A stretch of 64,000 bases of DNA. Source: Candidatus Nezhaarchaeales archaeon. Its GTDB lineage: Archaea > Thermoproteota > Methanomethylicia > Nezhaarchaeales > JAWCJE01. A model generated the notes under the pieces. The model saw nothing but the letters and a program-made list of their open reading frames with translations, was not told the DNA's origin and ran no database searches. Positions within the stretch are counted from its first letter, which is position 1. Each line of letters begins with the position of its first letter. The position numbers and the translations under genes are program-made. The DNA lies in contig JAWCJE010000001.1 in the NCBI GenBank assembly GCA_038853715.1, positions 117,963 through 181,962 on the forward strand. The letters run 5' to 3'. Positions 8,671-62,009 of this stretch are shown here, one piece after another.

Positions 8671-9804
8671 TCAATAAAATTTAAAGCTTACACCCCCTTG
8701 AATTAGTAACGGTTTAAGGTGTTGCCTCCTCATGAAGCCTATTAGCTCGTTGAGGTTTGGGTGGGATCCCTTCTCACTTGATATGTAGTATCCGGCTACG
8801 GCGTTAGCTACTATTAACTTAGCGGGGCTAGGTATATCTAAAGCCCAGCAGTAAACGTTACCAGCGTTCCAAGCGTCGCCAGCGCCAGTTACCCTTTTCA
8901 CCTGTACGTCGAAGGTGGGGAGTAGGGTAAAACCATCCTCCTCAAAGGATGCTGAGTAATTCGCCGTATGAAGGTAAACCTTAACGCGTAGAGCTTCATG
9001 TAGGAGGCGCGCCGCGGTTAATACTAGTTCGTCGGAGGGGCCTTTAGGCTTTAGACGCGCTATATCCTCATTTAAACATGAGGCATACCAGAGGGCTTCA
9101 TTCTCGTTTACGCTAAGGGCGTCGATTAGGCCGCTTTTAAGTACTTCGTCGATAAGCGTCTTAACTTCTCCAGCCCTACGTGATGGATCCCCTGTATCTA
9201 GGAAGATTTTAGGTTTACCCTGCTTCTTTAAGCGTTGAAGTACTGCCTTTATGAGCTCGGTGCCTCTACGGTTGGCCGTCCAGTTTAATAGGCATAATAC
9301 GTCGGCGTCCTCCATTAACGAGTATTCACGCTCGGTTAACCATTCGGGCCCGTATTTAGCTAACGTACCTGGGTCGCTAACCATTATGTTAACTAAGCGG
9401 CCCTTATGCTTTAGCTCGATGGAAACTGTTGACGATAATTCGCCATTACACCTTACGCCGCTAAGGTCGACGTCGAGGCCGGCCATAAACCATTTGAGGA
9501 GGTTTAGCCCGAGCTCGCTGGTTACCGATATTAAACGTACCCTTGCGCCTAGACGGGCAAGCGCTGAAGACGTATTTGCGGCGTTACCACCCCTCATAAC
9601 CATCTGCTTAGTAAGAGGTAGGCTTCCACCGCCTTGATCAGCTAGTAGGGTGAGGTCGGTTAAAAGGTTTGTTAAGTCTGCTTCGTAGCTTACTATTGTA
9701 TCTAGGAAGAAGTCCGGCATTACCGTGATTGTCGGCTTACCTTTAGCTGAGGTTAAGGCTTCAATAGCTTCATTTAACCAGCGGTTCATAGCCACTGGTA
9801 ACAC
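8671..9804 (-). CDS. PfkB/ribokinase-family carbohydrate kinase.
   Basis: 377 aa with the C-terminal signature 'VTGAGDAWNAG' (PfkB motif 2). Confidence 0.75.
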   Translation of the reverse strand: MLPVAMNRWLNEAIEALTSAKGKPTITVMPDFFLDTIVSYEADLTNLLTDLTLLADQGGGSLPLTKQMVMRGGNAANTSSALARLGARVRLISVTSELGLNLLKWFMAGLDVDLSGVRCNGELSSTVSIELKHKGRLVNIMVSDPGTLAKYGPEWLTEREYSLMEDADVLCLLNWTANRRGTELIKAVLQRLKKQGKPKIFLDTGDPSRRAGEVKTLIDEVLKSGLIDALSVNENEALWYASCLNEDIARLKPKGPSDELVLTAARLLHEALRVKVYLHTANYSASFEEDGFTLLPTFDVQVKRVTGAGDAWNAGNVYCWALDIPSPAKLIVANAVAGYYISSEKGSHPNLNELIGFMRRQHLKPLLIQGGVSFKFY

Positions 9805-9821
9805 GCTTAATCAGTTATCGT

Positions 9822-10562
9822 TTAAAAGGCTGGAGAAGCGGTTGAAGGGAGGCTTAGTACGACCTCGACGGGGCATGGTATACCGCTTAAAAGCTTCCTC
9901 CATTCATCGCCAAAGGCTAGTAACGTGAAAACGCCGACTAGCCTAGCTTTCGCCTTCCTAGTTATGTTTATTAGAGCCTGCACCGTTCTACCGGTTCTAA
10001 TCATGTCGTCAACTATTAATACGTCGTCCTTAGCCGTTAAGGAACGCTTTGGGACGTAGAGCGTGGTAAGCGATACCGGGCTACCAGCTGGGTAGGATTC
10101 CTCTATGAATTCTTTAACGCCTATATCCTTAGTCGCTTTAGCTATTACGATGGGGGCTTCAAGCGCTAACGCCACCGCTGTGGTTAATGGGATGCCGTTA
10201 ACAGCCGCCGTAACTACCTTGGTTATCCTCTTACCGGCGAACCTAGTCATTGCCTCGCTGGAGGCCTGCGTAAGCACGTAGGGGTCTTGGATTATGGGCG
10301 TTAAATCTACGTAGCCGTACTCATCGTACCTTAGTAGTGATTTAAGGATTGATGAGAAACTTATATTTCTATTCATGAGGCTCCAGAGGCTTTGAGCTAC
10401 GCTTTCACTAGGTGTTACATCGCCCTTAATGTATCTACATAGAACTGTTTCAGGCTTATTTAACTTCTTTGAGAGCTCCGCGTATGAATACACCTTTTTA
10501 AGGAGCCTTAACTTATTAACCACCATTAACCTAAACTTTAGGTTCTCCTCCTTACGCTTCAT
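9822..10562 (-). CDS. HTH plus type-I phosphoribosyltransferase-domain transcriptional regulator (GfcR/PyrE-like regulator architecture).
   Basis: The N-terminal wHTH region is followed by the PRTase PRPP-binding motif 'VLIVDDMIRTGRT'. It sits immediately upstream of the PfkB kinase on the same strand. Confidence 0.65.
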   Translation of the reverse strand: MKRKEENLKFRLMVVNKLRLLKKVYSYAELSKKLNKPETVLCRYIKGDVTPSESVAQSLWSLMNRNISFSSILKSLLRYDEYGYVDLTPIIQDPYVLTQASSEAMTRFAGKRITKVVTAAVNGIPLTTAVALALEAPIVIAKATKDIGVKEFIEESYPAGSPVSLTTLYVPKRSLTAKDDVLIVDDMIRTGRTVQALINITRKAKARLVGVFTLLAFGDEWRKLLSGIPCPVEVVLSLPSTASPAF

Positions 10563-14172: not shown

Positions 14173-15186
14173 GTGAAGGCGGCGGTATTAATGAGGCTTC
14201 AACTAGCCGTCGATCTATACGACTTAGATCTATCTTTAACGCCTTCCTTCGTCTCATCCGTCTACGAGAGGAAGGCTAAGGGGGAGTGGGTTAAGGTCGC
14301 GGGTTACCTATCGGGTAAGCTTATGATTAAGCAGTTAAAGCCTTCTAAGCTGTTAATTAAGTGTTTAACGGATCAGCCTAAACTTGTTAAGAAGCTTGTT
14401 GAGTATGAGTTAGGCTTATGGCATGAGCCCTTCGAGCATGGTCTAGATAAACTACCTAGAAGCGTTAGAAGCGTTCTAGTTAAGCTAGCTTCAACGTACC
14501 CTGGGCTAAGGCTACCGATTAGTTATAGGGATCAGTTCTACATATTCGTAGCTGTCGTCCTCTCTAGGAGGGCTAATTACGATCGATGGGTGCTTAAATG
14601 GTGTAAGAGGATATGGCGATTGTATGATGGGAGGCTTGAGGCGTTAATTAACGCCGATCGGAGCGAGCTTACGCGGATCGGTTCGAGCTACCAGGTAATG
14701 TTGTTACCAACCCTTTTAAAGGGCCTCCTAGAGGCCGTACGCTGCTTAGGTGGGTTAAGCTCCTTCCTTAAACTTGATCCAAACCTAGCTAGAGCCTTAC
14801 TGATTAAAAGGTGTAAAGGTATAGGGCCTAAGCTTTCCGATTCCTTCGTGCTTTCGGTGTTTAAAGCGCCGCATATCATCCCTTGCGATGTACACCTAGT
14901 GACGGTTGCGTCTAGGATGGGGTTAATCGGTGAAGCCAAGGTAAAGCTGCCATCTAAACCTTTATGCTCTAAATACGTTTGTAGTGAGAAGGCTTCTAGC
15001 TTAACGCGTTTACCTGTATGCCCGAGGACGTCTAGTTGCGTTAGGAGTAGGTTGCAACGGATGGTGGGGGAGCTTGGAGGATGGCTTCAAACGATAACCT
15101 ACCTTCACGGTAGGAGCTACTGTAGGACCCTGAGGCCTAAGTGTAATGTATGTCCTATGCGCGAGGATTGTAAAGGGCGGCCGTAG
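14173..15186 (+). CDS. Divergent HhH-GPD DNA glycosylase with a C-terminal [4Fe-4S] cluster loop (EndoIII/MutY-like) and an N-terminal extension of about 150 aa.
   Basis: HhH motif 'LIKRCKGIGPKLSDSFVL' followed by the catalytic-Asp context 'IIPCDVHL'. The C-terminal 'CRTLRPKCNVCPMREDC' fits C-x6-C-x2-C-x5-C exactly. Confidence 0.55.
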   Translation: MKAAVLMRLQLAVDLYDLDLSLTPSFVSSVYERKAKGEWVKVAGYLSGKLMIKQLKPSKLLIKCLTDQPKLVKKLVEYELGLWHEPFEHGLDKLPRSVRSVLVKLASTYPGLRLPISYRDQFYIFVAVVLSRRANYDRWVLKWCKRIWRLYDGRLEALINADRSELTRIGSSYQVMLLPTLLKGLLEAVRCLGGLSSFLKLDPNLARALLIKRCKGIGPKLSDSFVLSVFKAPHIIPCDVHLVTVASRMGLIGEAKVKLPSKPLCSKYVCSEKASSLTRLPVCPRTSSCVRSRLQRMVGELGGWLQTITYLHGRSYCRTLRPKCNVCPMREDCKGRP

Positions 15187-15254
15187 GTTGACGTTCGCGC
15201 TGAAAACTTAAATTGCCGATGAGGGAGGGAGGGCTTAAGCTTCTTACATAAACC

Positions 15255-16856
15255 TTAAGGCTTCATTAGGAGTTGGGCTGAGGCTACGTAGTTAACGTAA
15301 TCCAGCGCCGCTTTAGCTCCGTTACTAGCTAACTCTATGAGGGGGTATGGGTATACGCCGAGTACGACGGTTGAAGCCGTTAATATCGTTATTGGCGCTA
15401 ACATGGGTAGGCCGGGCTCGCTAACCTGTTTAAGGCTGCTTGGAAGCTTCCCGAAGAAGACGGCGTGAATAACCCTAAACTGAGCCGCTAGTACGATTGC
15501 GCTTGTAACCACTAGGAGGATGGCTCCAACTATCGCTGTAGGGGTAAGCTTTTCGAGGGCCGCTATAACTAGTAGTAGTTTACTTACGAATACGTTTAAG
15601 GGTGGTACGCCGGCTATTGATAGCGCGCCTATAATATAGCAGGTAGCGGTGATAGGCATTCTAGCGTATAATCCGCCGAGTTCACGGATATCTCTAATAT
15701 GGGTTTTATGGATTATACAGCCGACGGTGAGGAAGAGGAGGGCCTTGGTGATCATGTGGTTTATGACGTGTAGCGTAGAAGCCGTTAAGCCTGATTCTGA
15801 TGCTAAACTTACGCCTAGGAAGGCGTAGCCGATGTTAGCGATCGTTGAGTAGGCTAGGAAGCGTTTAATATCGTTTTGTAGTAGCATAGCTAAACTGCCT
15901 AGTAGCATTGAAAGCATACTTAAAGCTGTGACGACTTGGATTGAACTATGTACGGCGTTTAATACCTCCTCGATTACGTTTACGCCTCCATGGAAGACCG
16001 TAAAAAGTAGGCGGATGGACGTGTAAACGGTAACCTTAACGAAGGCCCCTGAAAGTACGGCGCTTATAGGTGTTGGCGCGGCTGGATGCGCATCCGGTAG
16101 CCAAGTGTGTAATGGGGCTAAGGCAGACTTTAAGCCGAAGCTCCATAAAGTTAAGGCCATTATGGCTGGTAGGACGAGAGTTATGCTGGACGGTATATTC
16201 CTTATACCGCCGCTAAGGGGTTCGGGGCTTTGACTATGTAAGCTTATCTTCACGGATAGGTCCGCCATATTAAGGGTTCCGAAGGCCCCGTAGATGAAGG
16301 CGGTTGCGAAGTAGTAGAAGTTTAAGGCTAAAGCGCTCATGAACATGTATTTTAAGCCTGCTTCAACGGCTTCGAAGCTTCTCCTTAGGAAGGCGACGAG
16401 CGCGTAAGAAGGCACCGACATTAACTCTAGGAAGACGAAGAGGTTAAAGAGGTCGCCGGTATATAGTGCACCCATCATACCGGACTCTAAGGTTAATAGT
16501 AAAGCGTAGTATAGGCTAAGGTTACCCTCCCTACTCATGTACTCGGTTGAGTAGATGGTGGCTAATAGGATGATTGCGGCTGACGCTACAGCTATGAGGC
16601 TATTTAGCTTATCCACCTCTAAAACGATACCAACCGGCGGTGGGAAGCCTCCCATCCGGTAAAGTAGGATACCGTTACCTGAGGAGGCGTAAACCATCGT
16701 AAGCACGGCGAATAGTAGTGTAGCGGCAGAAGACATACAGGCGAATACGTTAACCCACTTCCTAGAGATGAAGGTACCTATGGCTGGTGCTAGGAAGCCG
16801 GCGAAGAGCGGTGTGAAAACGGTTAGGATGGCTGCGTGTATTAGGCTAACGGCCAT
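15255..16856 (-). CDS. mrpD: Mrp/Mbh antiporter-like subunit (MrpD/NuoN/MbhH-like); last gene of the operon.
   Basis: 533 aa polytopic protein with NuoL/M/N-family conserved TM motifs. Adjacent to the mrpC-like gene on the same strand. Confidence 0.75.
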   Translation of the reverse strand: MAVSLIHAAILTVFTPLFAGFLAPAIGTFISRKWVNVFACMSSAATLLFAVLTMVYASSGNGILLYRMGGFPPPVGIVLEVDKLNSLIAVASAAIILLATIYSTEYMSREGNLSLYYALLLTLESGMMGALYTGDLFNLFVFLELMSVPSYALVAFLRRSFEAVEAGLKYMFMSALALNFYYFATAFIYGAFGTLNMADLSVKISLHSQSPEPLSGGIRNIPSSITLVLPAIMALTLWSFGLKSALAPLHTWLPDAHPAAPTPISAVLSGAFVKVTVYTSIRLLFTVFHGGVNVIEEVLNAVHSSIQVVTALSMLSMLLGSLAMLLQNDIKRFLAYSTIANIGYAFLGVSLASESGLTASTLHVINHMITKALLFLTVGCIIHKTHIRDIRELGGLYARMPITATCYIIGALSIAGVPPLNVFVSKLLLVIAALEKLTPTAIVGAILLVVTSAIVLAAQFRVIHAVFFGKLPSSLKQVSEPGLPMLAPITILTASTVVLGVYPYPLIELASNGAKAALDYVNYVASAQLLMKP

Positions 16857-17243
16857 TTAACCGGCCAACCTCCTAACGCGTCTTTCATCTACGCTACCGT
16901 AAATCCTGTAGACGGCGATTATTAAGGCGACCGCGAAGGCCGTAACGGCCATATCGATAACTATGGCTGTTAACACTAAGCATTGCGGTAGAGGGTCTAC
17001 GGCTAGGCTTACGTAGCTTGAAATGTCCTCTCTTAACCCGTGCGGTATGACTGGCGCTATAGGGATGTTTGGCCACACTTCGCGGTACCCTAACGTTATG
17101 AAGAAGAGGTTTATGGAGTTCACCATTAACCCTAGCCCTATCAACTTCTTAACGAAGTTAGGCTTAGCTAGAACGCAGTATAACGCTATTAGGAAGAGCG
17201 TTACCGCGGCTAGGTACGGATATTGCTGAATAATGTTCGTCAA
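16857..17243 (-). CDS. mrpC: MrpC/NuoK-like small membrane subunit.
   Basis: 128 aa with a NuoK-like N-terminal region. Confidence 0.7.
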   Translation of the reverse strand: MTNIIQQYPYLAAVTLFLIALYCVLAKPNFVKKLIGLGLMVNSINLFFITLGYREVWPNIPIAPVIPHGLREDISSYVSLAVDPLPQCLVLTAIVIDMAVTAFAVALIIAVYRIYGSVDERRVRRLAG

Positions 17244-17725
17244 CGTTTTTCATCATCCCTACTCGGAGCTATCTCCCTTAAAGCCGTGAAGAAGAGGAAG
17301 GCTGCTAGGAAGCCCATACCAACGTTTATTGATTCACCTAACGCTAGTAGCGGTATTGAACCGGCCGATAAAGCTTCAACTCCAAACCATTTCTCCGGGA
17401 AGAAGCTTAACGGTAGACCCCATTCAGGTTTCGCTTGGTTCTGCATGAAGAAGCCGAAGCAGATACCCGTTAAGCTCGTTAAGGCTATTAAGCTTAACCC
17501 GAAGGCCTGGAACCTTAAAACGTGTTTAACCGGCGTTTTAGCTACGCATTCCTCGTACCCCATAGCCACCACGTAGAGTATGAAGGCCGCGCCTAGTAAA
17601 GCGCCGCCTTGAAAGCCGCCTCCGGGCGTGAAGTGTCCATGCATTATTACGTTAGCCGCTAACACTAAGATGAGCGGTGTTATAAGCCTAGTCGCGGTTT
17701 TAACGATGATACTCATCCCGCTCAA
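17240..17725 (-). CDS. mrpB: MrpB (MnhB-domain) subunit.
   Basis: 'HGHFTPGGGFQGG' signature of MnhB. Confidence 0.75.
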   Translation of the reverse strand: MSGMSIIVKTATRLITPLILVLAANVIMHGHFTPGGGFQGGALLGAAFILYVVAMGYEECVAKTPVKHVLRFQAFGLSLIALTSLTGICFGFFMQNQAKPEWGLPLSFFPEKWFGVEALSAGSIPLLALGESINVGMGFLAAFLFFTALREIAPSRDDEKR

Positions 17726-17991
17726 CTAAACCTCCTCCTTGAAAGTAGGGTTAAAACCCCTATTACGGCTATGAAGAAGACGCTGGTTTCCCCTAAAGTA
17801 TCGTAACCCCTATAATCCCATACGAGGGCTTGAACGGCTTCAGTAGCGGCTGTCTGCGTTAAAGTGTTGTTTAAGTAGTAGAGGGCAAGGGGACGTATGA
17901 AGCCGAAGCTTGGTAGCCCTACTACGCCGTAGGCTAATGTCAACCCTAGGACGGCTATGAAGGTTAACGCTAAAGCCTCCCTAACGTTCAT
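17722..17991 (-). CDS. MbhE-like small subunit (MnhB-related).
   Basis: 89 aa with the motif 'VWDYRGYDTLGE', which I recall as the MnhB-related family signature. Confidence 0.6.
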   Translation of the reverse strand: MNVREALALTFIAVLGLTLAYGVVGLPSFGFIRPLALYYLNNTLTQTAATEAVQALVWDYRGYDTLGETSVFFIAVIGVLTLLSRRRFS

Positions 17992-18245
17992 GGCTCCTCG
18001 AACCTCAAAGTCTTCTTTACAACTATAACGAGTAGGGCTGTCCCTACACCCGCATCTATAACTACTTGTGTTAACGCTATATCCGGGGCTTGAAGAACGT
18101 AGAATACGGCTGCTAATGCAACGCTTTGCATCGAGAGGAATATGTTAGCAGCTAGTAGGTCGCGCGTCCTTACGGCGAGAAACGCGAATATCAACATTAA
18201 CCCTAGTAACGCTACTAGGACGGCGTGGAAGACCTGCGGCGTCAA
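17988..18245 (-). CDS. MbhD-like subunit (DUF4040, MrpA C-terminal-like).
   Basis: 85 aa, two TM helices, with the conserved 'PDIALTQVVIDAGV' pattern. Confidence 0.6.
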   Translation of the reverse strand: MTPQVFHAVLVALLGLMLIFAFLAVRTRDLLAANIFLSMQSVALAAVFYVLQAPDIALTQVVIDAGVGTALLVIVVKKTLRFEEP

Positions 18246-18619
18246 GGATTTTCATCCTCCTTAAGCATATCGCAAGCCTTAGGCTCAAACTTAACGCCGG
18301 ACTTATACGCTGCCCTCGCGATCGCGTGGGCTCCGACGGGGGATGTTAAAACGATAAGTACGGCTACGAGTATGCATCCAGTAGCGATCGGCAGTTTAAC
18401 CTCAACCGGCTCGTTAAGAGTTAACGCTATTAACGCGACGCCTAGAATCGGATAGAAGGCTCCTCCAATACTACTAACCGTAGCAGCGTGGAGGCGGACG
18501 TAGAAGTTAGGGAACCTCACCATCCCGATGGCGCCCACCACGTTACAGAATAAGCCTACCCCGAGTAACGTTAAACCTACAACCTCCAGCGCCGATCGGA
18601 TTAACGACATTAAATCCAC
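18242..18619 (-). CDS. mrpG: MrpG (MnhG) subunit.
   Basis: 'GMVRFPNFYVRLHAATVSSIGG' matches the MnhG core motif. Confidence 0.75.
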   Translation of the reverse strand: MDLMSLIRSALEVVGLTLLGVGLFCNVVGAIGMVRFPNFYVRLHAATVSSIGGAFYPILGVALIALTLNEPVEVKLPIATGCILVAVLIVLTSPVGAHAIARAAYKSGVKFEPKACDMLKEDENP

Positions 18620-18894
18620 TATTCTCCAACCTCCCTACCTTCAAGGTACTTAGCTATATACAATGTTCCGATAAACCCTAAAACGGCTAGGGAGACTGCT
18701 ACCACGATGAAGAACGTGGAGGAATAGTAAAGGGCTAGGAGGACGAAGATTAAACAGGCCGCCGCGGAAGCAACATCTAAGGCTAAAACGCGGTCAGGTA
18801 TTGTAGGCCCGGCGGCCACCCTAAAAGCTAGGAGGGCTAGTGAAGCTAGAAGTGGAGCCATAAACCATATTAGGATGGCTTTATCCATTAGCAT
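18619..18894 (-). CDS. mrpF: MrpF (MnhF/PhaF) subunit.
   Basis: 91 aa with the 'GPTIPDRVLALD' motif. Confidence 0.7.
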   Translation of the reverse strand: MLMDKAILIWFMAPLLASLALLAFRVAAGPTIPDRVLALDVASAAACLIFVLLALYYSSTFFIVVAVSLAVLGFIGTLYIAKYLEGREVGE

Positions 18895-19421
18895 TACCCG
18901 AACACCTTTAGGAGTTTTTCGTCGAAGGCCTTATTGATGCTTTCGTAGCAAGCCTTAAGGTCCATGGAGGTAACGTTTATCCAGTTTACGTATATAACTC
19001 CACGTCCCGTATCGGTTTCAACGCTAACGGTTCCCGGCGTATTCGTTATGGAGCAGGCTACGGCGGTTAAGCCGAAGTCCGTTTTACACGTACATGGGAC
19101 CTTAACGATGCCCGGGTTTATCGGCATCCTTGGATGCAGTATCCTGTAGATTACGTCCTTATGGGCTAGGTACTCAGCCACCGTAAAGTAGTAGGCTACG
19201 TACTTCATACCCTCAATGAGGCGGCGAAGATTAAGCTCGGGGCGGCCCTTAAAGACGATGTCACGCGTGAAAAAGGCGAGTATTAATGAGGCTATTACGC
19301 CTAGTGAAACCTCGTCAGGCCTCACGTTACCGGATAGGAGAAGCCAGAATAGTAGGTAGAGGGAGGTTAAAACGGCGATTGCTGAAAGACCGTTTAACAC
19401 CTTCATTACCACCACCGCCAC
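18894..19421 (-). CDS. mrpE: MrpE (MnhE) subunit.
   Basis: 'ITNTPGTVSVETD...VIYVNWINV' matches the MnhE pattern 'TLTPGT...HWI'. Confidence 0.7.
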   Translation of the reverse strand: MAVVVMKVLNGLSAIAVLTSLYLLFWLLLSGNVRPDEVSLGVIASLILAFFTRDIVFKGRPELNLRRLIEGMKYVAYYFTVAEYLAHKDVIYRILHPRMPINPGIVKVPCTCKTDFGLTAVACSITNTPGTVSVETDTGRGVIYVNWINVTSMDLKACYESINKAFDEKLLKVFG

Positions 19422-21487
19422 GCGAATAGTAATACGATGAACATTAAGCCTGCGAAGGCGTAGAGGAGGTACGTAGCTAGATCGCCTAGGTGAATCGCCC
19501 TAACCCCCCTCGAAGCCTTTAGGAGGCTAGCCCCAAACCCATGGACTGATCGATTTATAAGCTTAAGCTCGAAACCCTTAAACGCGGCCCCCATACTCTT
19601 AGCGGTAAATGGGACCGCTAAGTAGTGGGACCTATCAATTACGCCTAACTCAACAATGTTGAAGAAGGCCTTAGTAAGCCTTAAGAAGCCGTAGACGAAG
19701 ACCTTGTAGTAAAACCTATTAATATACCACCTATTGAGTAGGAAGGACCTAATGGCTGAAAGCGTTGGATACGACTTTAATAGGCGGTCGGTATCCACCT
19801 TGGCTAAAACGTATGTTAAGGTGCCGGTTAAACCTCCAACAGCCAACATGGCGAAGGAGGTAACGGTTACAAGTATGCTCGACGCGGCTTCAACGTGGCT
19901 AGCGGCGTCGTGAACGTGGAGGACGCTGTGAAGAGCTGGTTCAACCCATGGGGCTGAGAGGCCTAAGGCTAAGGTCGCTAAGGCTAATAGGGCGTAGGGG
20001 ATTAGCATAGTGGCGTCCGCCTCTTCAACCTTATGCCCGTGTTTAAGTAGTTGTGAAAGCCATGCGCTTTTAGGGCTTAGGAATATTAATGATAGGTACC
20101 TTAAGCTGTAAAACACGGTTAAAGCCGAAGTTAGGGCGGCTAGGGCGAATAGTTCGACGCGGCCCGATGCTAAGCTTGAAAGTAGTACCGCCTCCTTACT
20201 GTAGAAGCCGCTGAACGGCGGTACTCCGGAGAGCGATAAGGCGGCGAAAAGCGTAAAGGTGAAGGTTAGGGGCATATACCTCCTTAACCCTCCAGCCTCT
20301 AGGATGAACCTTGACTCCGTAGCGTGGATAACGGCGCCGGCCGATAGGAATAAGGCGGCTTTAAATAGGGCGTGGCTAGTAAGGTGGAAGAAGCCCGCGG
20401 TATAACCCGTTAACCAATCTTCAGGTGTTAGGCCGGCGGAGCCTAAGGCTAGGAACATGTAGCCTATCTGGCTAACCGTTGAGTATGCTAAAACCTTCTT
20501 AATCTCGGTGGAGACTAAGGCTTGGGTTGCCGCCATGAAGGCCGTGAAGGCGCCGATGGAGGCGGCCGCGTAGAAGAAGAGGGTTAACTCCTTAAACCCG
20601 TGTATCCATGTAATAGTCCAGAACGTGGGGAGCATCCTAGCTAGTAGGTAGACGCCCGCCTTCACCATGGTTGCCGCGTGGATTAAGGCGCTAACCGATG
20701 TTGGGCCCGCCATAGCGTCGGGGAGCCATTCATGGAGGGGGAACTGAGCTGATTTACCGATCGGCCCCATGAGGAATAATATGGCTACCGGTAGCAGTAA
20801 ACCGGCTTGATGAAGCTTTAAGGCCCACTCCTTGGAGGTTTCGTAGAGCCCCTCATAGCTAACGGTGCCAGCAGCTAAGTAAATGGTTAGAATGGCGGCG
20901 AGGAGGCATACGTCGCCGACCCTAGTCGTTACGAAGGCTTTCATACCTGCGTGTGAAGGCGGGTAGGCTTCGGGCGGTTCACCGACCCAACACCTCCGCC
21001 AATCCTCCTTTAAATCCCGGTACCAGTAGCCTATGAGAGCGTAGCTACAAAGCCCTACGCCCTCCCAGCCAACATAGGTTATTACTAAGTTATCCGACAT
21101 TACGAGTAGGAGCATGCTGCCCACGAAGAGGTTCATGAAGAACCAGTACCTAGTTAGGCTTAGATCGCCGCGCATATAGCTTAAGCTATAAACCATTATT
21201 AATAGCGATATCCAAGACACTACGTTAGCCATTAAAACGCTTAAAGGATCCACTAAGACGCCTACGCTTACACCGTAAATCGGGTTCCATGGGAGTTTAA
21301 GGATGGAATGCTTTAAACCTCCGAGGGCTAGGTCTAAGAGCATGGAGGCTGCCGATAGTGAAGCGCCTAGCGTAAAGAGTGGAGCGGCGTAATCCCTAAG
21401 CTTAACGTTAAGCATGCCGAGTAACGGTGTAAGTAAGGCACCTAGTACTGGGAGCATCCAGGTAAGCCATGGGGCGTAGGGTATCAA
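19406..21487 (-). CDS. mrpA: MrpA/NuoL-like large antiporter subunit with a C-terminal extension.
   Basis: 693 aa NuoL/MrpA-type polytopic protein with a long C-terminal amphipathic region. It overlaps both the upstream and downstream genes, implying translational coupling. Confidence 0.75.
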   Translation of the reverse strand: MIPYAPWLTWMLPVLGALLTPLLGMLNVKLRDYAAPLFTLGASLSAASMLLDLALGGLKHSILKLPWNPIYGVSVGVLVDPLSVLMANVVSWISLLIMVYSLSYMRGDLSLTRYWFFMNLFVGSMLLLVMSDNLVITYVGWEGVGLCSYALIGYWYRDLKEDWRRCWVGEPPEAYPPSHAGMKAFVTTRVGDVCLLAAILTIYLAAGTVSYEGLYETSKEWALKLHQAGLLLPVAILFLMGPIGKSAQFPLHEWLPDAMAGPTSVSALIHAATMVKAGVYLLARMLPTFWTITWIHGFKELTLFFYAAASIGAFTAFMAATQALVSTEIKKVLAYSTVSQIGYMFLALGSAGLTPEDWLTGYTAGFFHLTSHALFKAALFLSAGAVIHATESRFILEAGGLRRYMPLTFTFTLFAALSLSGVPPFSGFYSKEAVLLSSLASGRVELFALAALTSALTVFYSLRYLSLIFLSPKSAWLSQLLKHGHKVEEADATMLIPYALLALATLALGLSAPWVEPALHSVLHVHDAASHVEAASSILVTVTSFAMLAVGGLTGTLTYVLAKVDTDRLLKSYPTLSAIRSFLLNRWYINRFYYKVFVYGFLRLTKAFFNIVELGVIDRSHYLAVPFTAKSMGAAFKGFELKLINRSVHGFGASLLKASRGVRAIHLGDLATYLLYAFAGLMFIVLLFAWRWW

Positions 21488-23019
21488 GGGGTACCACCCA
21501 TTAAGGCGAGTATGGCGTCGGCGGCTAGCTTAAATGGGGGTAGGAATAGATGTGGAAAGACACCTAATAGTGTAACGAAGAGGGCTATTAGCATCATGGG
21601 CACCACCATAACCAGCGGCGACTCCGAAACCATTTCAAAGGGCCTCGGTACCCCTTCATCCGGGATCTCGATCCGCTTAACGTACCTTTCGTAAAGCTCG
21701 TCTAAGCCCCACGCTCTTTCACCGAAGAACATACGTCTCACCGTCCAAAGGTAGTAGGCAGCCGTTAAAGCCGTGGAAGCTAAGCCAAGTAGGCATACGA
21801 GGTGGAAGCCCGCTTCAAAGGTCCCGGTGAAAAGCATTAATTCGCTAGCGAATCCTCCTAGCGGAGGCGTACCGGCTATCGATAAGGCGCCTATTAACGC
21901 TACTGTAGCCGTTATCGGCATCTTCCACGCGAGGCCGCCGAGCTTATCAATATACTTGGTGCCAGCTGAATGTACAAGGGAGCCGGCGCAGTATAGGAGG
22001 GAGCCTTTAGCAACTCCGTGGGTTAACATGTGGTATAAGCCACCTACAACGCCGATGGGTGTTAAGCTGGATATTCCTAGAAGGATGTAGCCCATCTGAT
22101 TAACTGAGCTATAGGCTAAAACCCTCTTAAAGTCCCTTTGGACGAGCGCCATTAAGGCGCCCCAAAACATGGTGATTAAAGCTAAAACCGATAACGCTGG
22201 AGACCAGCCCTTTATAACTGAGGGGAAGAAGGTGAATACGACGCGTATAAGCCCGTAGGCTCCGAGCTTTATCATAACCGCGCTTAATAAGGCATGTATT
22301 GGGACCGGGGCTTCACCGTGGAAGTCGGGCAGCCAGCTATGGAAGGGGAATACCCCCATTTTAACGGCGAAGCCTACGAACATGAGGAAGGCGATAACCC
22401 TCGCCGAAAAAGCGTCAACTCCGTTTAAAAGCCCTCTAGGAGGGTTAAGGTCTAGGGTACCTGTAAGCGAGTAAAACCATAGGATGCCGGCGAGGAGGCA
22501 TAACCCTCCAGCCACCATGTAGAGGATGTACTTAACGCCGATCACCCTAGCTTTACGCGTACCCCAAAGCGAAACGAGGAAGTAGGCGGGTATGTTCATA
22601 GCCTCGAAGAATAAGAAGAACTGTATTAGGTTTGTTGAAAGAGTTACGCCGAGCATACCTACCGCGTAGAATAGGAGTAACGCGTAGTAGAGCTCGATGT
22701 CATGCTTATCCTTCATATATTCGAAGGAGTAAACCGACGATACTAAACAGAGGCTGGCTATTGCAAACGCTAACGGTAGGTTTAACCAGTCTAAGAAGAG
22801 GTCGAAGCCCACGATTAATCCGCCCATCCTAATCCACCCGTAACCTTCGTAGGCGGGTATCCCGCGTAGGACGCTTAATAGCATCATGATGAGTGAAAGG
22901 GATAAGGCGGTGGAGGAGGCGAGGCACGCGTAAAACCTACCAATACGTAGGCCTCTAGCCGTAAGTATCACTATGAGCATAGCTATTAAGAGCGGTAGTA
23001 GAAGCGTTAAAAGCATCAA
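21484..23019 (-). CDS. mrpD: MrpD/NuoM-like antiporter subunit (paralog 2).
   Basis: 511 aa with conserved NuoM-type TM helices. Overlaps its neighbours by 4 nt. Confidence 0.75.
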   Translation of the reverse strand: MMLLTLLLPLLIAMLIVILTARGLRIGRFYACLASSTALSLSLIMMLLSVLRGIPAYEGYGWIRMGGLIVGFDLFLDWLNLPLAFAIASLCLVSSVYSFEYMKDKHDIELYYALLLFYAVGMLGVTLSTNLIQFFLFFEAMNIPAYFLVSLWGTRKARVIGVKYILYMVAGGLCLLAGILWFYSLTGTLDLNPPRGLLNGVDAFSARVIAFLMFVGFAVKMGVFPFHSWLPDFHGEAPVPIHALLSAVMIKLGAYGLIRVVFTFFPSVIKGWSPALSVLALITMFWGALMALVQRDFKRVLAYSSVNQMGYILLGISSLTPIGVVGGLYHMLTHGVAKGSLLYCAGSLVHSAGTKYIDKLGGLAWKMPITATVALIGALSIAGTPPLGGFASELMLFTGTFEAGFHLVCLLGLASTALTAAYYLWTVRRMFFGERAWGLDELYERYVKRIEIPDEGVPRPFEMVSESPLVMVVPMMLIALFVTLLGVFPHLFLPPFKLAADAILALMGGTP

Positions 23020-24461
23020 GGCGTTACAGCCTCCACGACAGGGTATAATACCTCTAGAACGGGGCTTGGAGCTACGCCTAGTATTACTGTTGCTAATCCG
23101 AGTGGAAGCAACGGTATTAACGTCCTCCAGTTTGCCTCCGTAACGTTTTCAAGGCTCCTAATGCTACTCGAGACGAACATCCTATATATGGCCCAGAGGA
23201 AGTAGGGAAAGGTAAGTAGGGCTCCAGCTACTGCTAGTAGCGCGTAGATCCAGCCGCGTTGAAAGCCGCCGCCGAAGAGCATCCATTCCCCTATGAAGCC
23301 CGCGAAGGGAGGTAGGCCTCCGAGGCTTAAAGCAGCTAATAGGAAGAAGGTACTGGTTAAAGGCATTTTAACGGCGACCCCTCGAAGCTCCTCAAGGTCT
23401 TCGCTAAACGCTTTCTCGCCGTAAACACCTGAACACATGAAGAGGAGCCCCTTACAGATCGCGCTATTTAAAGCGTAAAAGATGCTTCCAGCTAAACCAA
23501 GCGTCGTAAGGGTGGAGGCTCCGAACACCACGTAGCCAGCGTGGCTTATGCTTGAATATGAAAGCATACGTCTAAGGTCGCGTTGGGCTAGGGCCATGGC
23601 TGAGCCGTAAACCATACTGACTACGCCTATCAACATGAGCTGCCCAGCGAAGCCTGAAGCTAAAACCCCTAAAACGCCGAAGGGTATCCTAAATATGCCG
23701 TAGGTGGTAGCAACCATCATGACAGAGCTCATAACTACTGTTAACGGTAAAGGGCTGTAGCAGTAGGCATCGGGTAGCCATGCGTGAAGGGGGAAGACGG
23801 CTAACTTGATTAAGAAGCCTATCGTTATTAGTAGCGTAGCCTGAGTAAGTACTACGTCAGTAGCTCCGCTTAGCTTAAGCGTTATGTCAGCCATGCTTAA
23901 CGATCCGAGCCTTAACCCGATCATGATGAAGCCTATTAGGATGAGGATGGAGCCTACGTGGGTGAAGAAGAAGAACTTATACGCCGTTATATGCGCTCTA
24001 CCGGGCGAACCCCAAAAGAGTATAATGAAGAAGCATGGAACAAGCATCAACTCCCAGAAAACGTAGAACTGGAGGAGGTCGACGGCTAGGAGGACGCCGA
24101 TCACGCCGGCGTAAAATAGGGAGAAGCAAAAGTAGTACTCAGGGCTCCTAACGGTAAGAGCGCTGTAAACCATTGAGAGAAGCGTTATCGAAGCCGCGGC
24201 CACTAGGAGGGGTAGGCTTAGACCGTCAAGTAAAAGCCCGAAGCTAACCCCGTACTGAGGTATCCAGCTATACTTAAAGCTTAACGATCCGAGCCTTGAG
24301 AAGTCGACGGCTAATAGAAGTAGCAAGATAAGGGAGGTGGACGGGATGATGGAGAAGAGCTTAACGAATGAGGACTTAAGCCTCTTAGTTAACGCGTAAA
24401 GCGGAAATGGAAGCGCTACGGATGTAGCTAGCAATAGACATAGCCCTAGTATAGCCTCCAC
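23016..24461 (-). CDS. mrpD: MrpD/NuoN-like antiporter subunit (paralog 3); first gene of the operon.
   Basis: 481 aa NuoN/MrpD family protein. An AT-rich TATA-like sequence lies upstream. Confidence 0.75.
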   Translation of the reverse strand: MEAILGLCLLLATSVALPFPLYALTKRLKSSFVKLFSIIPSTSLILLLLLAVDFSRLGSLSFKYSWIPQYGVSFGLLLDGLSLPLLVAAASITLLSMVYSALTVRSPEYYFCFSLFYAGVIGVLLAVDLLQFYVFWELMLVPCFFIILFWGSPGRAHITAYKFFFFTHVGSILILIGFIMIGLRLGSLSMADITLKLSGATDVVLTQATLLITIGFLIKLAVFPLHAWLPDAYCYSPLPLTVVMSSVMMVATTYGIFRIPFGVLGVLASGFAGQLMLIGVVSMVYGSAMALAQRDLRRMLSYSSISHAGYVVFGASTLTTLGLAGSIFYALNSAICKGLLFMCSGVYGEKAFSEDLEELRGVAVKMPLTSTFFLLAALSLGGLPPFAGFIGEWMLFGGGFQRGWIYALLAVAGALLTFPYFLWAIYRMFVSSSIRSLENVTEANWRTLIPLLPLGLATVILGVAPSPVLEVLYPVVEAVTP

Positions 24462-24499
24462 CCGCCGTCAAACCCCTACATGAACTAAGAGAGCGTGGA

Positions 24500-24530
24500 A
24501 AACCGAGTTTAAATAATTTTTTACTGTACG
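24500..24530 (-). promoter_or_regulatory. Putative BRE/TATA promoter for the Mrp operon.
   Basis: Reads 'aaaaaattatttaaa' on the minus strand, about 50 nt upstream of the 24461 ATG, in a 260-bp divergent intergenic region. Confidence 0.3.
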
Positions 24531-24721
24531 TAGGTTTAGACGTTCAATCCCCTCCTACCGGCCGGGATTAATGCGGATAACGTAAAAATAGTAAACACTA
24601 CCTTGAGGAGCTACTAATACGCTTCACGTAGACCTGCTTTATTACAGTATTTCGATGAGGGGTCCTAAAGCTTTATTTTAGGTAGGTTTAAGCATCTTAA
24701 ACGTCGTAGTAAGGTGGTGGG

Positions 24722-25270
24722 GTGTTCGTCATGAACGCCTTTGCCTTAAAGGGTAAGGCTCCATCGTTTGGCGTAGGGGTTTTTGTAGATCCTACCGCTA
24801 GGATTATAGGCGACGTCGAGGTTGGGGATTACGCCGCGGTTTGGTACGGGAGCATCGTGAAGGGTGAGGATGGATTAACTAGGATTGGTGCTAGAAGCGT
24901 GATTATGGAGCAATGCTTAGTGGAGAATTCACAGTTAGGGGAGAAGGTCCTTGTAAGTCATAGGGCCGTGTTGCATAGGTGCGTAGTTGAAAGGGGTGTG
25001 CTTATAGGTATAGGTGCTATAGTACTTGATGGAGCCCGTATAGGCGAAGAAAGTATTGTAGGTGCCGGTAGCTTAATAATGGGTGGGTTTCGAGCGCCCA
25101 GGGGAAGCCTTATTGTAGGTAGTCCGGCGCGGGTTTTAAGGGAGGTAACCGATAAGGATAGGGCGTTCCTTGAAAAGGCCTTTAATGAGGCTTCGCTTAA
25201 ATCGAGGCTTTACGCTGAGGTAATAGGTACTGCTACATTTAGAGGGTATAGTAAATCCGCTGCTGATTAA
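24722..25270 (+). CDS. Gamma-carbonic-anhydrase-family / hexapeptide-repeat (left-handed beta-helix) protein.
   Basis: 182 aa with repeated [LIV]-G-x-x-x-x-I hexapeptides ('IGDVEVGDYAAVWYGSIVKGE...VLIGIGAIVLDGARIGEESIVGAGSLI'), typical of Cam/PaaY/CaiE-type proteins. The real start is possibly the ATG at 24731. Confidence 0.65.
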   Translation: MFVMNAFALKGKAPSFGVGVFVDPTARIIGDVEVGDYAAVWYGSIVKGEDGLTRIGARSVIMEQCLVENSQLGEKVLVSHRAVLHRCVVERGVLIGIGAIVLDGARIGEESIVGAGSLIMGGFRAPRGSLIVGSPARVLREVTDKDRAFLEKAFNEASLKSRLYAEVIGTATFRGYSKSAAD

Positions 25271-25285
25271 GGGTAGGCGTTAACG

Positions 25286-25975
25286 TTGATAGCGGCTTGT
25301 AGAAGTAATATGGTAAAACTCTTATTATCCATATTAAGCGAGGAGGAAGGTGTAGAAGAGGATACGTTAAGGCTTAAGCTGGGGGTTAATGAGTTAGATT
25401 TAAGCTTATTAAGGGAGTTGGCGGAGGAGGGCTTACTAAGCCGTGAGAATGGGTATTGGTGGATGCGTGATAAGTTTGGCTTAGCCCTTAAAGCTTTAAG
25501 GCTGGGCGCTAGTATTGAAGCTGTAGCTCAATCATTTACTTGGCGCGACTTCGAATGGTTCTCCTCTAAGGCTTTTGAGGCTAACGGCTACGAGGTGTTA
25601 AGGAGTGTGAGGTTCAGCTATCAAGGTAGGCGTTACGAAGTGGATGTAGTAGCCGCGAAGAAGCCGTTAGTAGTACTCGTGGATTGTAAGAGTTGGGGTA
25701 TAGTTAGCGGTAAAGCTTCGAGACTGAGAAGTTGTACGCTTAAACATGTTGAACGCGTTAAAGCCTTTAAGGGGTCTTTAAGCGAGTTGAAGCGTAAACC
25801 GAACATGGAAGGGTGGGATAAGGCGTACTTAGTGCCGGTGGTGGTAACGATCTTCGAGGAGGCGGTTAAGGTGCACATGGGCGTACCTATAGTCCCGATA
25901 TTTAAGTTGAATAGCTTCATTAGCGAGCTTGAAACGTACTTGGATACGGTTAACGCCGAGCTTATTACGCTTTAA
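25286..25975 (+). CDS. Restriction-endonuclease-like (PD-(D/E)xK, Mrr/NERD-type) domain protein with an N-terminal wHTH-like region.
   Basis: 'FEWFSSKAFEANGYEV...RRYEVDVVA...VLVDCKSW' fits the D...E-x-K nuclease core. 229 aa. Confidence 0.4.
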   Translation: MIAACRSNMVKLLLSILSEEEGVEEDTLRLKLGVNELDLSLLRELAEEGLLSRENGYWWMRDKFGLALKALRLGASIEAVAQSFTWRDFEWFSSKAFEANGYEVLRSVRFSYQGRRYEVDVVAAKKPLVVLVDCKSWGIVSGKASRLRSCTLKHVERVKAFKGSLSELKRKPNMEGWDKAYLVPVVVTIFEEAVKVHMGVPIVPIFKLNSFISELETYLDTVNAELITL

Positions 25976-26152
25976 AGGCTGGATACGCGCGTCGGGTCCA
26001 TCCATTGCGGGTATTAATCGTTATGGATGTTAAGCTCCTCCTTCAAGATGCTGAAAATTTTAAGGATTCTTATTGTGAGGCCGACTTGGGTTATTACCGT
26101 AATGCTTTATTAAAGCTATCTTTAAGCTAGAGTTTGAGGGGTTGATGTAGGC

Positions 26153-27034
26153 TTGTTTATCGGCGTTATCCACGGGTTAAGTACGCCGGATCATCCTTCA
26201 TCGGAGCTTCTTAAAGCGTTAAGGGATCGGGGTGTTGACGCCGACCTCTTAACGATATCTAAGATTACCGCCCACGTAGGCGCGAAGCGTTCCTTTAGCT
26301 ATAGGGGTAGTCAGCTTAAGCTTGATGGAGCCTTCGTACGCTCCTTAGGCTCCATATTAACCGCGGATCAACTCGTAAGGCGTATTAGCCTCTTAAGCCA
26401 CATGGAAGATGAAGGGGTAACCCTCATGAACCCCTTAGACCCTCTACTTAACTCTAGGGATAAGTATCGGTCCTTATGCATTCTTGAGAGGAGCGGATTA
26501 AGGGTTCCTAAGACCATTATTACTGAGGATCTTAAAGTAGCCTACGAATGGGTGAAAAAGGTTGGACAAGTAGTTATAAAGCCCGAGGTAGGATCGAGGG
26601 GCTATGGAGCCGTGAAGACCGATGACCCCGAGGTTGCCTTTAGGATACTTAAAACCCTGGCCTCCTTTAGGCAGCCGTTATACATTCAGGAGTACGTAGC
26701 GAAGCCGGAGCGCGATATTAGGGCCTTCGTCGTGGGGGATGAGGTAATAGCCGCCATATACAGGGTGGCGAGTCCATCTGAATGGAGGACTAACGTAGCT
26801 CAGGGGGGTAAGGCTAAACCGTTAAAGGTCACCGCTGAGGTCAGCGAGGTAGCGTTAAAGGCTACTTCATGCTTAGGGCTTTGGTACTCCGGCGTTGACA
26901 TAATAGAAGCCGCGGAGGGATACATGGTACTCGAGGTTAACGGATCCCCAGAGTGGGCTGGACTACAGGAGGCTACGGGAGTAAGGCCGGCTCCAATCAT
27001 GGTGGACTTCCTAATATCGAAGCTGAAAAGCTAA
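26153..27034 (+). CDS. RimK/LysX-family ATP-grasp ligase.
   Basis: 293 aa with the ATP-grasp motifs 'VVIKPEVGSRGYGAV' and 'LEVNGSPEWAGL', plus the 'IQEYV' hinge. Confidence 0.75.
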   Translation: MFIGVIHGLSTPDHPSSELLKALRDRGVDADLLTISKITAHVGAKRSFSYRGSQLKLDGAFVRSLGSILTADQLVRRISLLSHMEDEGVTLMNPLDPLLNSRDKYRSLCILERSGLRVPKTIITEDLKVAYEWVKKVGQVVIKPEVGSRGYGAVKTDDPEVAFRILKTLASFRQPLYIQEYVAKPERDIRAFVVGDEVIAAIYRVASPSEWRTNVAQGGKAKPLKVTAEVSEVALKATSCLGLWYSGVDIIEAAEGYMVLEVNGSPEWAGLQEATGVRPAPIMVDFLISKLKS

Positions 27035-48877: not shown

Positions 48878-48925
48878 ACTCTAGGGTAAGGTTTAATTGC
48901 TGGTCCTCCCCCCACTTCGACGGCC

Positions 48926-49489: not shown

Positions 49490-49734
49490 GTATGGCCTCC
49501 ATTAACGTTTAAATGTTAATTTAGACGCGGATGCTTCATATCCGATTACGATTCCAACGTTAAACGTATTACTCTACGCGAAGTTATCGTAGGGTTAAGC
49601 GTAGGCTTTAATAGAGCTACTTGAAGGCCTTGAAGTCGCCCATAACCTTTAATACTTACGCGTTTTAGGGCTTTAACCTCGCATCGTTAATTAAGGTTCT
49701 AATAGATGCGCATTGAGAAAGACTTTGACCGTAT

Positions 49735-51000: not shown

Positions 51001-51107
51001 CGGGCGCCTAAAACCTACGACCCTTTATAAGCCGTAGACGGGTAGTAGTGGATGGAAGGCTGGGTGTTAGCACTTTAGGCTTAATCGCTCCTCGGGAAAA
51101 AAGGCTC

Positions 51108-61917: not shown

Positions 61918-62009
61918 GTAGCTTTAACCCCTTTATCTACTAGATAACGGCTTTACTTACTCCACAACCTTTTTTAACCTATAAAACAGGGGATTTATGG
62001 TGGAACTTA

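Follow-up and report, generated by a model that had tools for sequence, protein, structure and literature searches.

A 64-kb stretch of DNA from the metagenome-assembled genome (MAG) of a hot-spring Nezhaarchaeales archaeon (the window, by which we mean the whole stretch analysed) carries an operon of eleven minus-strand genes, running from 24461 to 15255, whose products resemble parts of Mrp antiporters, of membrane-bound hydrogenase (MBH) and of respiratory complex I. In the direction of transcription the genes encode NuoM-NuoM-NuoL-MrpE-F-G-MbhD-MbhE-MnhB-MrpC-MbhH/MrpD-like proteins. Three sources agree on this gene set, namely the listing of open reading frames (ORFs), Pfam, and NCBI's own gene predictions for two MAG contigs, and all three confirm the outline given in a first-pass annotation of this DNA, which had described an operon in Mbh order with four large subunits. 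The same proteins are found on contigs JAWBVH010000002.1 (GCA_038840635.1) and JAWCEV010000002.1 (GCA_038859265.1), both labelled Nezhaarchaeales by NCBI. Every junction between the eleven genes is either abutting or an overlap of 1–16 nt, the NuoL stop and the MrpE start overlapping by 16 nt, and the eleven genes form one tightly packed operon. Upstream lies a divergent intergenic region of 260 bp (24462–24721), AT-rich and with TATA-like boxes facing both ways, of which the one read from the sequence at ~24508–24522 would serve the operon. A scan for sigma-70 promoters and intrinsic terminators found nothing above chance, its model being of bacterial type and inapplicable to archaea.

The four antiporter-like subunits and the split MrpA

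The operon opens with two NuoM-like genes, M1 (481 aa, 23016–24461) and M2 (511 aa, 21484–23019), each with a PF00361 domain, followed by a NuoL-like gene (693 aa, 19406–21487; PF00662 and PF00361) whose product is equivalent to transmembrane helices (TM) 1–16 of MrpA. It closes with a fourth PF00361 gene of MrpD/MbhH type (533 aa, 15255–16856). These large subunits were typed by best hits, signature residues and family cut-offs, used in place of a full PF00361 phylogeny. M1 and M2 both pass the NCBIfam cut-off for NDH_I_M (TIGR01972; 329.7 and 318.5 bits, respectively, against 263.8), and the NuoL-like protein passes that for NDH_I_L (TIGR01974; 465 against 407.5 bits). The best relatives of M1 in the PDB are NdhD3 and NuoM, and those of the NuoL-like protein are NdhF1 and NuoL, with the alignment extending through the lateral helix, while the ranking for the 533-aa subunit is headed by MbhH (6cfw_H, 6.8e-82), with MbsH and MrpD next. 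The two upstream subunits formerly typed as MrpD-like are thus NuoM by family score and by a glutamate in TM12, and the one typed as MrpA/NuoL-like is NuoL; the assignment of the last subunit to the MrpD type stands, with MbhH as its best structural match. NdhD3 of NDH-1MS is the nominal top PDB match of both M1 and M2, barely above NuoM (1.6e-55 vs 6.2e-54). The idea that M1 and M2 might be CO2-uptake subunits of the NdhD3 type was nonetheless rejected, both because of this slender difference and because the L subunit matches NdhF1 and not NdhF3.

The TM5 glutamate and the TM7 lysine are kept in all four large subunits, as is a Lys or Glu at TM12; of the charged residues conserved in Mrp antiporter-like subunits, the TM8 Lys is missing from M1. 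At TM12 the residue is the NuoM-specific Glu in M1 and M2 and a Lys in the 533-aa and 693-aa proteins. M2 displays the NuoM signature in the form of E139, K220, K251, H330/H334/K338 and TM12 E393; M1 has E137 in TM5, K219 in TM7 and E392 in TM12; and the 533-aa subunit has E144, K243, K274, H363/H367/K371 and K426. Because M1 and M2 are only 34% identical, they are not the product of a recent duplication, and outside its own species the relatives of M1 reach no more than 42% identity.

Between the NuoL-like gene and the last gene lie, in order, an MrpE/MbhA-like gene (18894–19421; MNHE domain PF01899, 1.6e-34), an MrpF/MbhB-like gene (18619–18894; PF04066), an MrpG/MbhC-like gene (18242–18619; PF03334, 3.8e-22), an MbhD-like gene for the NuoJ-like first half of the MrpA C-terminal domain (17988–18245; PF13244), an MbhE-like gene for the second half of that domain (17722–17991; PF20501), an MrpB/MbhF-like gene with the MnhB domain (17240–17725; PF04039, 6.9e-25), and an MrpC/MbhG/NuoK-like gene (16857–17243; PF00420) whose product has MbsG and MbhG as its best PDB matches. 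On the 773 positions of the MrpA profile PRK12647, the NuoL-like protein covers 8–580, MbhD 602–669 and MbhE 689–762, and since the three together tile the profile they can be taken as one MrpA. By Pfam and profile tiling, all the Mrp domains are present (MrpA-N, MrpA-C, B, C, D, E, F and G). Group 3 Mrp systems are those clusters that have no single mrpA gene, an irregular gene order and sometimes several mrpD genes (PMC8415708; PMC5703873), and the window operon belongs among them, with no single mrpA gene, an irregular order and four PF00361 genes. Aligned with 6cfw_B and 6z16_F, the MrpF-like protein is seen to retain the equivalent of MrpF D35, an Asp within its LALD motif.

The NuoL-like protein differs from NuoL of Nezhaarchaeales complex I by a 27-residue insertion in its C-terminal amphipathic helix, apparently a helix unit repeated in tandem (ELGVIDRSHY... 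/ ELKLINRSVH...). The length of this lateral helix was compared as a spacer, i.e., the number of residues between the RW[YF]IN motif and the R..[QH].G motif that precedes the last TM helix, in all NuoL-like genes of the retrieved loci (designated by L and a number). Loci with four antiporter-like genes (L010, L011, L076, L081 and L082) have spacers of 76–77 aa, and those with three (L007-9, L022, L023 and L101) have spacers of 49–50 aa; in L014, where the contig is cut and two antiporter-like genes are visible, the spacer is 49 aa. In the window it is 77 aa, which matches the four-subunit class and is thus consistent with the exactly four antiporter-like genes of the operon. A related rule is known from "2M" complex I, in which an insertion of 26 aa accompanies the fourth pump subunit (Chadwick et al., 2018, cited in PMC9040806). 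The 27-aa insertion in the window is consistent with this rule, the operon pairing two NuoM genes with a long-helix NuoL. An AlphaFold2 model of the NuoL-like protein (mean pLDDT 83.7) places helices at 566–584 and 591–658 and a terminal TM16 at 670–692, the confidence being low in the inserted part of the lateral helix. Elsewhere, the Asgard NuoL proteins of Promethearchaeota/Hodarchaeota (P0148/P0162, 766 aa) have a third copy of the ~27-aa unit, and by the spacer rule such a helix would span four neighbours, i.e., belong to a set of five pump subunits.

Redox genes, related loci and the proposed assembly of the eleven products

The first-pass annotation had noted that NuoB/C/D/H/I genes are absent near the operon, and this holds across the full 64 kb by both tblastn and Pfam. 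In tblastn searches, the NuoA/B/C/D/H/I/J, MbhI-like and FrhB proteins of L007 and L092 gave no match in the window, and the queries N7_NuoH, N92_NuoH and N92_x113 found neither NuoH/MbhM nor an MbhI-like gene there. Pfam scans of the other window ORFs of at least ~130 aa likewise gave no hydrogenase and no Nuo peripheral-arm genes. The only K- and J-like genes in the window are those for the NuoK-like MrpC and the NuoJ-like MbhD/E, which are of Mrp/MBH type. The remaining ORFs belong to housekeeping and central metabolism, with one exception, a gene for a molybdopterin oxidoreductase that lies at a distance of 26 kb among UbiD/CoA-ligase genes.

Given the observed gene content, order and packing, the subunit types, key residues and helix length, and the lack of redox genes in 64 kb, we hold with moderate confidence that the eleven genes encode one stand-alone, ion-gradient-driven Mrp (CPA3) antiporter of group 3, exchanging cations for protons, with a split MrpA and two extra NuoM pumps. 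That all eleven products meet in a single complex, and what its subunit order, direction, ion and stoichiometry would be, we infer. MrpA would be divided into a complex-I-type NuoL (TM1–16 plus the lateral helix) and MbhD/MbhE (TM17–21), and the subunits would be arrayed in the membrane as [MrpE-G-F-B] - [MbhD/MbhE, MrpC] - MbhH/MrpD-like - NuoM - NuoM - NuoL. This D-M-M-L order is suggested because in solved Mrp structures MrpD is flanked by MrpA-N on one side and by the small subunits on the other, and because the position of MrpA-N in Mrp is taken in MBH by the redox module (PMC7419157), the two being alternative partners at the same MrpD face (PMC7419157; PMC8415708). The long lateral helix of NuoL would then run back over, and clamp, its three antiporter-like neighbours. 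On the model of solved Mrp structures, protons entering by up to four antiporter-like channels would power the outward transport of a cation (Na+ or another) via the small-subunit module, in a strongly electrogenic exchange with a high ratio of H+ to cation. At alkaline pH, proton capture must be powered by the membrane potential (PMC7419157), and Nezhaarchaeales have been reported to be more abundant in alkaline springs (PMC11094006); a role in pH and ion homeostasis in alkaline hot springs would suit both observations.

Close relatives of the operon are few. A profile search of genome contigs with a 34-sequence MrpD/MbhH alignment yielded, among the matches listed, only distant relatives of at most 39% identity, and 80 loci were roughly annotated as a survey of architectures; metagenome contigs scanned with the window protein and its 80% relative gave two matches of 29% identity, which are irrelevant. 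The only close relative of the core, at 80% identity, lies on two 5-kb Logan contigs that read MbhD-MbhE-MnhB-C-D and then continue into unrelated genes, with no NuoH. Among the more distant relatives of the 533-aa subunit, the one with the highest score is on L101, an archaeal contig of 37% GC, whose order is F-G-MbhD-MbhE-MnhB-C-D(510)-NuoL(680, spacer 50)-NuoM(497), followed by DNA polymerase B; the contig is cut upstream, where a redox module may yet lie. The small subunits of L101 are 37–51% identical to those of the window, closer than any other reference, so that a second lineage, too, has this core subtype on one stretch of DNA with NuoL/NuoM, in another gene order. The core subtype is met once more in L102 (Fer4-E-F-G-MbhD-MbhE-B-C-D-MbhI-like-NuoH), which by its gene content is an MBH-like respiratory form. 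That MbhI and NuoH take the place in L102 of the NuoL and NuoM partners in the window fits the view of the MBH module and MrpA-N as alternatives at the MrpD face.

A different core subtype is present in the Nezhaarchaeota-like loci L092-L094 and L097, with the order F-G-MbhD-MnhB-C-E-D-x-NuoH and divergent NuoB-C-D-I. In L097 (2650–15380) this 14-gene Mbh-like complex (NuoB-C-D-I divergent plus F-G-MbhD-MnhB-C-E-D-x113-NuoH) stands between the very genes that flank the window operon. Compared with window 14173–27034, the shared flank includes a hypothetical 337-aa protein (42% identity), Mrr (47%), RimK (59%), deoxyhypusine synthase (69%) and DNA ligase (68%), with DUF4443 and HhH-GPD as further genes; L094 (115–8280), on a contig truncated at one end, has the right-hand flank in common (Mrr 45%, RimK 56%, deoxyhypusine synthase 64%). 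With a respiratory Mbh-like complex at the syntenic site in L097 and L094, and a redox-free operon in the opposite orientation in the window, the locus has evidently been remodelled. The possibility that the window core is merely a diverged orthologue of the L094/L097 complex is not favoured, as the gene order differs, MbhE and MnhB are fused there, MbhD has Tyr in place of Gln at its coupling site, and the L101 and L102 cores are closer. The genes at the redox-side end of these loci also differ among themselves, an FrhB/FdhB-like, F420-related gene being present in L092 and L093 (L092:3782–4846) and a BtpA-family gene in L097 (3802–4608), which suggests different electron donors.

The presence of a full respiratory complex at the syntenic locus of L094 and L097 lends some colour to the notion, raised in the first-pass annotation, that the eleven proteins are the membrane arm of a new respiratory complex, onto which a NuoH-anchored redox module encoded elsewhere would dock in trans. 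The same core subtype does occur with MbhI and NuoH in L102, the N-like, two M, L and J/K-like subunits together mirror the full pump module of complex I, and an MrpA-N-like subunit is the docking site of the redox module in MBS (table in PMC8415708). On this last ground we reject as too strong the argument that, with its two docking faces taken, the complex has no room for a redox module. Yet NuoH adjoins Mrp-like or pump genes in all the Mbh-, Mbx- and complex-I-like loci retrieved (L092, L097, L102, L018, L024, L027, L050, L055, L007 and L010); genes for MbhI and NuoH/MbhM lie within the cluster in each Mbh-like locus seen (L092, L097, L102, L050 and L055), directly after D in the first three, and the window has neither. 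Moreover, the docking face of MbhH is the one taken by MrpA-N-type subunits (PMC7419157), and bacteria commonly have Mrp clusters that stand alone and carry several pumps. Docking in trans is accordingly a reading to which we give little credence.

The bacterial clusters just mentioned, with E-F-G-(MbhD)-MbhE-B-C-D and then two further large subunits, which makes three in all, amount to about a dozen loci among the 80 (drawn from the matches listed), exemplified by L039, L043, L061 and L085. Where inspected, their last large subunit has a helix-plus-anchor tail and is typically ~570–630 aa long, up to ~715 aa, and NuoB/C/D/H were not found in those inspected loci. The first-pass proposal of an unusual stand-alone multi-antiporter Mrp complex in Mbh order is supported as to the type of complex, given that the eight distal genes have the layout of Pyrococcus furiosus Mrp, that TM5 Glu and TM7 Lys are kept in four of four large subunits and that no redox-module gene is present in the 64 kb. 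It is less unusual than was claimed, with multi-pump group 3 systems already in the literature and the dozen or so bacterial loci besides.

Several observations weigh against a single four-pump antiporter. Its exact architecture was seen in one lineage only, that of the window species, the 80% relative being known from a 5-kb contig, so that conservation of the M-M-L/E junction is at most conjectural. M1 looks partly degenerate, as the TM8 Lys and both TM11 His are missing. In the small-subunit ion path, the equivalent of MbhD E69/MrpA E706 is a Gln, with an Asp at +4, and MrpC has Asn42 and Asn45 where Mrp and MBH have His or Asp (MrpC H37/H40, MbhG D37/H41). This Gln is common to the cores of the window, L101 and L102, while a Tyr, like that of complex I NuoJ, is found in the cores of L092, L097 and L012; at the MrpC position L101 and L102 have Asp as opposed to the Asn of the window, which has its Asp at MbhD +4. 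That Asp, one turn later, may be a relocated carboxylate. With the coupling-site Glu replaced by Gln and with Asn in MrpC, the ion specificity, and even canonical coupling, are uncertain. A partner redox module encoded elsewhere is, moreover, sterically conceivable by analogy with the docking seen in MBS.

Further points concern NuoL and the two NuoM proteins. The closest database relatives of the NuoL-like protein are genuine complex I NuoL proteins, at 54–57% identity, from complete 11-subunit clusters of other Nezhaarchaeales, and M1 and M2 are NuoM by the family cut-offs, so that these three could belong to a complex I encoded elsewhere. The long lateral helix would fit equally well if the fourth subunit were a NuoN encoded elsewhere. 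In P. furiosus, furthermore, an EFGBB'CD core functions without MrpA (PMC8415708), from which it follows that such a core does not strictly need L and M.

From these points the case can be made that the operon serves two complexes, a P. furiosus-type group 3 Mrp on the one hand and, on the other, the NuoM-NuoM-NuoL part of a 2M complex I or Fpo-like enzyme whose nuoABCDHIJKN genes lie elsewhere. The 54–57% identity of NuoL to complex I NuoL falls within the 42–69% range of the flanking orthologues shared by the window and L097. In Nezhaarchaeales complex I clusters (A-B-C-D-H-I-J-J'-K-N-x-x-L-M), nuoL-nuoM is already a separate sub-cluster, set apart from A-N by two unrelated genes, and stand-alone L-M pairs are known from other archaeal loci (L005, L006 and L048). 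Both M1 and M2 score above the NuoM cut-off and carry its specific TM12 Glu, and a 77-aa spacer would suit N+M+M+L just as it suits the operon's own four subunits. What speaks for a single complex is the tightness of all the junctions, above all the 16-nt overlap of NuoL and MrpE, which makes that junction translationally coupled, and the recurrence in L101, under another gene order, of a linkage between NuoL/NuoM and the same core subtype. M2 and M1 are only 37% and 32% identical to Nezhaarchaeales complex I NuoM, below the 45% shared with the distant L101 NuoM, and so are not simple orthologues of it; nor is there any nuoA-K/N gene in the 64 kb. We regard the division into two complexes as unlikely.

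A bolder formulation combines elements of these views, in that a 2M-type NuoL and two NuoM subunits would have been grafted onto an MBH-type Mrp core to give a hybrid with a five-module arm, acting either as a stand-alone antiporter that moves 3–4 H+ per cation, a very high ratio, or as the pump arm of a respiratory enzyme with a NuoH-anchored redox module encoded in trans. In this specific form the proposal seems to us quite improbable. Were its trans-redox version true, the complex would represent a living intermediate form that links Mrp, MBH and complex I. Apart from the stand-alone L-M pairs, the archaeal loci L003 (5551–13799) and L004 (5584–13594) each hold four NuoL/NuoM-like genes in a row, of 661, 743, 543 and 635 aa, with no small subunits between the four and a J-J'-K-N cluster on the opposite strand a few kb away.

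The gamma-carbonic-anhydrase-like gene and other neighbours

Gamma-carbonic anhydrases (gamma-CAs) are subunits of plant and protist complex I, and the NDH-1MS and DAB systems couple to CO2/bicarbonate conversion. The gene at 24722–25270 on the plus strand encodes a gamma-CA-family hexapeptide protein of 182 aa (Hexapep Pfam match) and lies, as first described, divergently upstream of the operon across the 260-bp spacer, with a TATA-like box of its own at ~24672–24680. In this setting one may ask whether the protein is a peripheral subunit of the complex, or couples the complex to CO2/bicarbonate conversion. Besides the adjacency, it counts in favour that the gene is absent from the syntenic site in L094 and L097, relatives with an Mbh-like complex there, and so may have arrived with the operon; that NdhD3 of NDH-1MS is the nominal top structural match of M1 and M2; and that the gamma-CA subunits of complex I are detectable homologues (~1e-27).

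The protein itself speaks otherwise. Against canonical gamma-CA (Cam numbering), Arg59 is replaced by Lys, Asp61 by Glu, Gln75 by Met and Asp76 by Glu, and of the zinc ligands His81, His117 and His122 the first has become Glu while the other two are kept (alignments to 4mfg, 1xhd and 9jyw); to judge from these replacements, the active site is degenerate. Its score against NF050158, the NCBIfam gamma-CA model, is 131.5 bits, below the cut-off of 250, and its closest homologues are free bacterial gamma-CA-family proteins (1e-32), ahead of the complex I subunits. No homologue occurs within 10 kb of any of 100 other Mrp/complex-I loci, a comparison that covers other architectures, the 80% relative being on 5-kb contigs; the gene is read from the opposite strand with its own promoter-like box, and the NdhD3 resemblance is undone by the near-equal NuoM score and by the NdhF1 character of the L subunit. 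A functional tie to the complex, as the first-pass annotation had envisaged on the basis of the neighbourhood, is hence very improbable in our judgement, the degenerate site, the sub-cut-off score and the absence of the gene from the L094/L097 synteny and from the 100 loci all telling against it.

On the other side of the operon, the gene at 14173–15186 on the plus strand (337 aa) is convergent with it. This is the gene that had been described as a divergently oriented glycosylase beyond 16856; it lies instead beyond 15255, and its resemblance to endonuclease III/Ogg is weak and far below threshold (1.5e-8; 34.6 bits vs a cut-off of 211.7). The protein has no Pfam match and is kept at the same position in L097, and it may be a divergent HhH DNA glycosylase. 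An Rfam scan of the window gave no match.

The molybdopterin oxidoreductase mentioned above (776 aa, 51108–53438) is part of a cluster at 48284–56489, in which it shares the minus strand with an AMP-forming ligase (53404–55083) and a UbiD-family decarboxylase (55062–56489), the plus strand carrying a flavin reductase, a UbiX-like flavoprotein and a UPF0261 gene; a TrmB regulator adjoins. The cluster resembles gene sets for anaerobic (de)carboxylation of aromatic acids. At 60055–63068 (plus strand) an enzyme like phosphoenolpyruvate (PEP) synthase/pyruvate phosphate dikinase is split over two adjacent genes in an unusual order, a 620-aa protein ending in the PEP-utilizers mobile domain coming first and a 352-aa PPDK_N (ATP-binding) protein second. 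Finally, a PfkB-family kinase gene stands directly beside a Pribosyltran gene (9822–10562) at 8671–10562, and in the Nezhaarchaeales locus L007 (1–18462) a PfkB-family and a Pribosyltran gene, the latter 51% identical to that of the window, flank an S26e-ProRS-complex I-L15e segment from opposite sides. The pattern hints, weakly, that the surroundings of the complex I site have been rearranged; the PfkB fragment is unmatched, essential genes of the segment must have moved, and nothing firm follows.

Relation to known Mrp, MBH and complex I systems

Mrp, MBH/MBS and complex I are thought to have been assembled from the same interchangeable modules. In the loci with NuoL surveyed here, NuoL helix length follows pump count, and the exchange of modules is visible in natural sequences. 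If a four-pump Mrp does assemble, it would offer a redox-free system in which to study how many antiporter-like subunits can be chained and what stoichiometry of H+ to cation results, questions of pump number and stoichiometry that are also central to the mechanism of complex I. There is a warning for annotation as well, in that a gene called NuoL or NuoM in an archaeal MAG is not in itself a sign of complex I.

The stand-alone group 3 Mrp of P. furiosus (mrpEFGBB'CD, PF1147-53; Haja et al., 2021, PMC8415708) is, like the window system, archaeal and without a redox module, with the same E-F-G-(MbhD/MbhE)-B-C-D order and a last subunit of MbhH/MrpD type. It has a single antiporter-like subunit and no equivalent of MrpA-N (the "energy-input module"), whereas the window adds NuoL and two NuoM genes upstream; MbhD and MbhE are fused there as MrpB and are separate genes here. 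Some bacterial group 3 systems have extra pump subunits. In Ca. Nitrospira alkalitolerans, NuoM- and NuoL-like genes follow mrpD in a group 3 cluster (PMC7784846), and this organism and L039, L043, L061, L085, L013 and L046 share with the window the Mbh-ordered small subunits, several pumps, one subunit with a lateral-helix-plus-anchor tail and a locus without NuoB/C/D/H. Their extra subunits, usually two and ~30% identical to those of the window, come after mrpD; those of the window number three, lie upstream and are of archaeal complex I type, with a NuoL helix of four-pump length.

In the 2M complex I of Nitrospira and its relatives (Chadwick et al., 2018, cited in PMC9040806) there are likewise two NuoM subunits, an insertion in NuoL (~26 aa, vs 27 in the window) and four pumps. 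The window, on the other hand, has no NuoA/H/J and no Q- or N-module genes nearby, its N-position subunit is MbhH/MrpD-like, its J and K positions are filled by MbhD/MbhE/MrpC, and it has MrpB/E/F/G, which are absent from complex I. Each subunit of the eight-gene Mrp module has a homologue in the MBH and MBS of Thermococcales (6CFW, 6U8Y), and MBH/MBS chains are the top PDB matches of MrpC, MbhD, MrpF and the 533-aa protein. The window system differs in that genes for MbhI, MbhM (NuoH) and MbhJKLN are absent from the 64 kb, NuoL and NuoM taking the role beside MbhH that falls to the hydrogenase module in MBH or to MbsH' in MBS. With group 1 Mrp (Anoxybacillus flavithermus and Bacillus pseudofirmus; 6Z16, 7QRU) the window system has in common the same functional domains, the TM5 Glu/TM7 Lys pair and the MrpF Asp, and it departs from them in the distribution of MrpA over three genes, the two extra pumps, the gene order, a Gln for Glu706 and Asn for MrpC His37/His40.

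Group 3 Mrp, its multi-pump variants and the helix-extension rule are thus already known. What is new is the union, in one archaeal operon, of an MBH-type Mrp core with a long-helix, complex-I-derived NuoL and two NuoM genes upstream, and the position of that operon at a site occupied in relatives by a respiratory MBH-like complex. New, too, is the appearance of a single core subtype with three partner modules, namely MbhI and NuoH (L102), NuoL and one NuoM (L101), and long-helix NuoL with two NuoM (the window).

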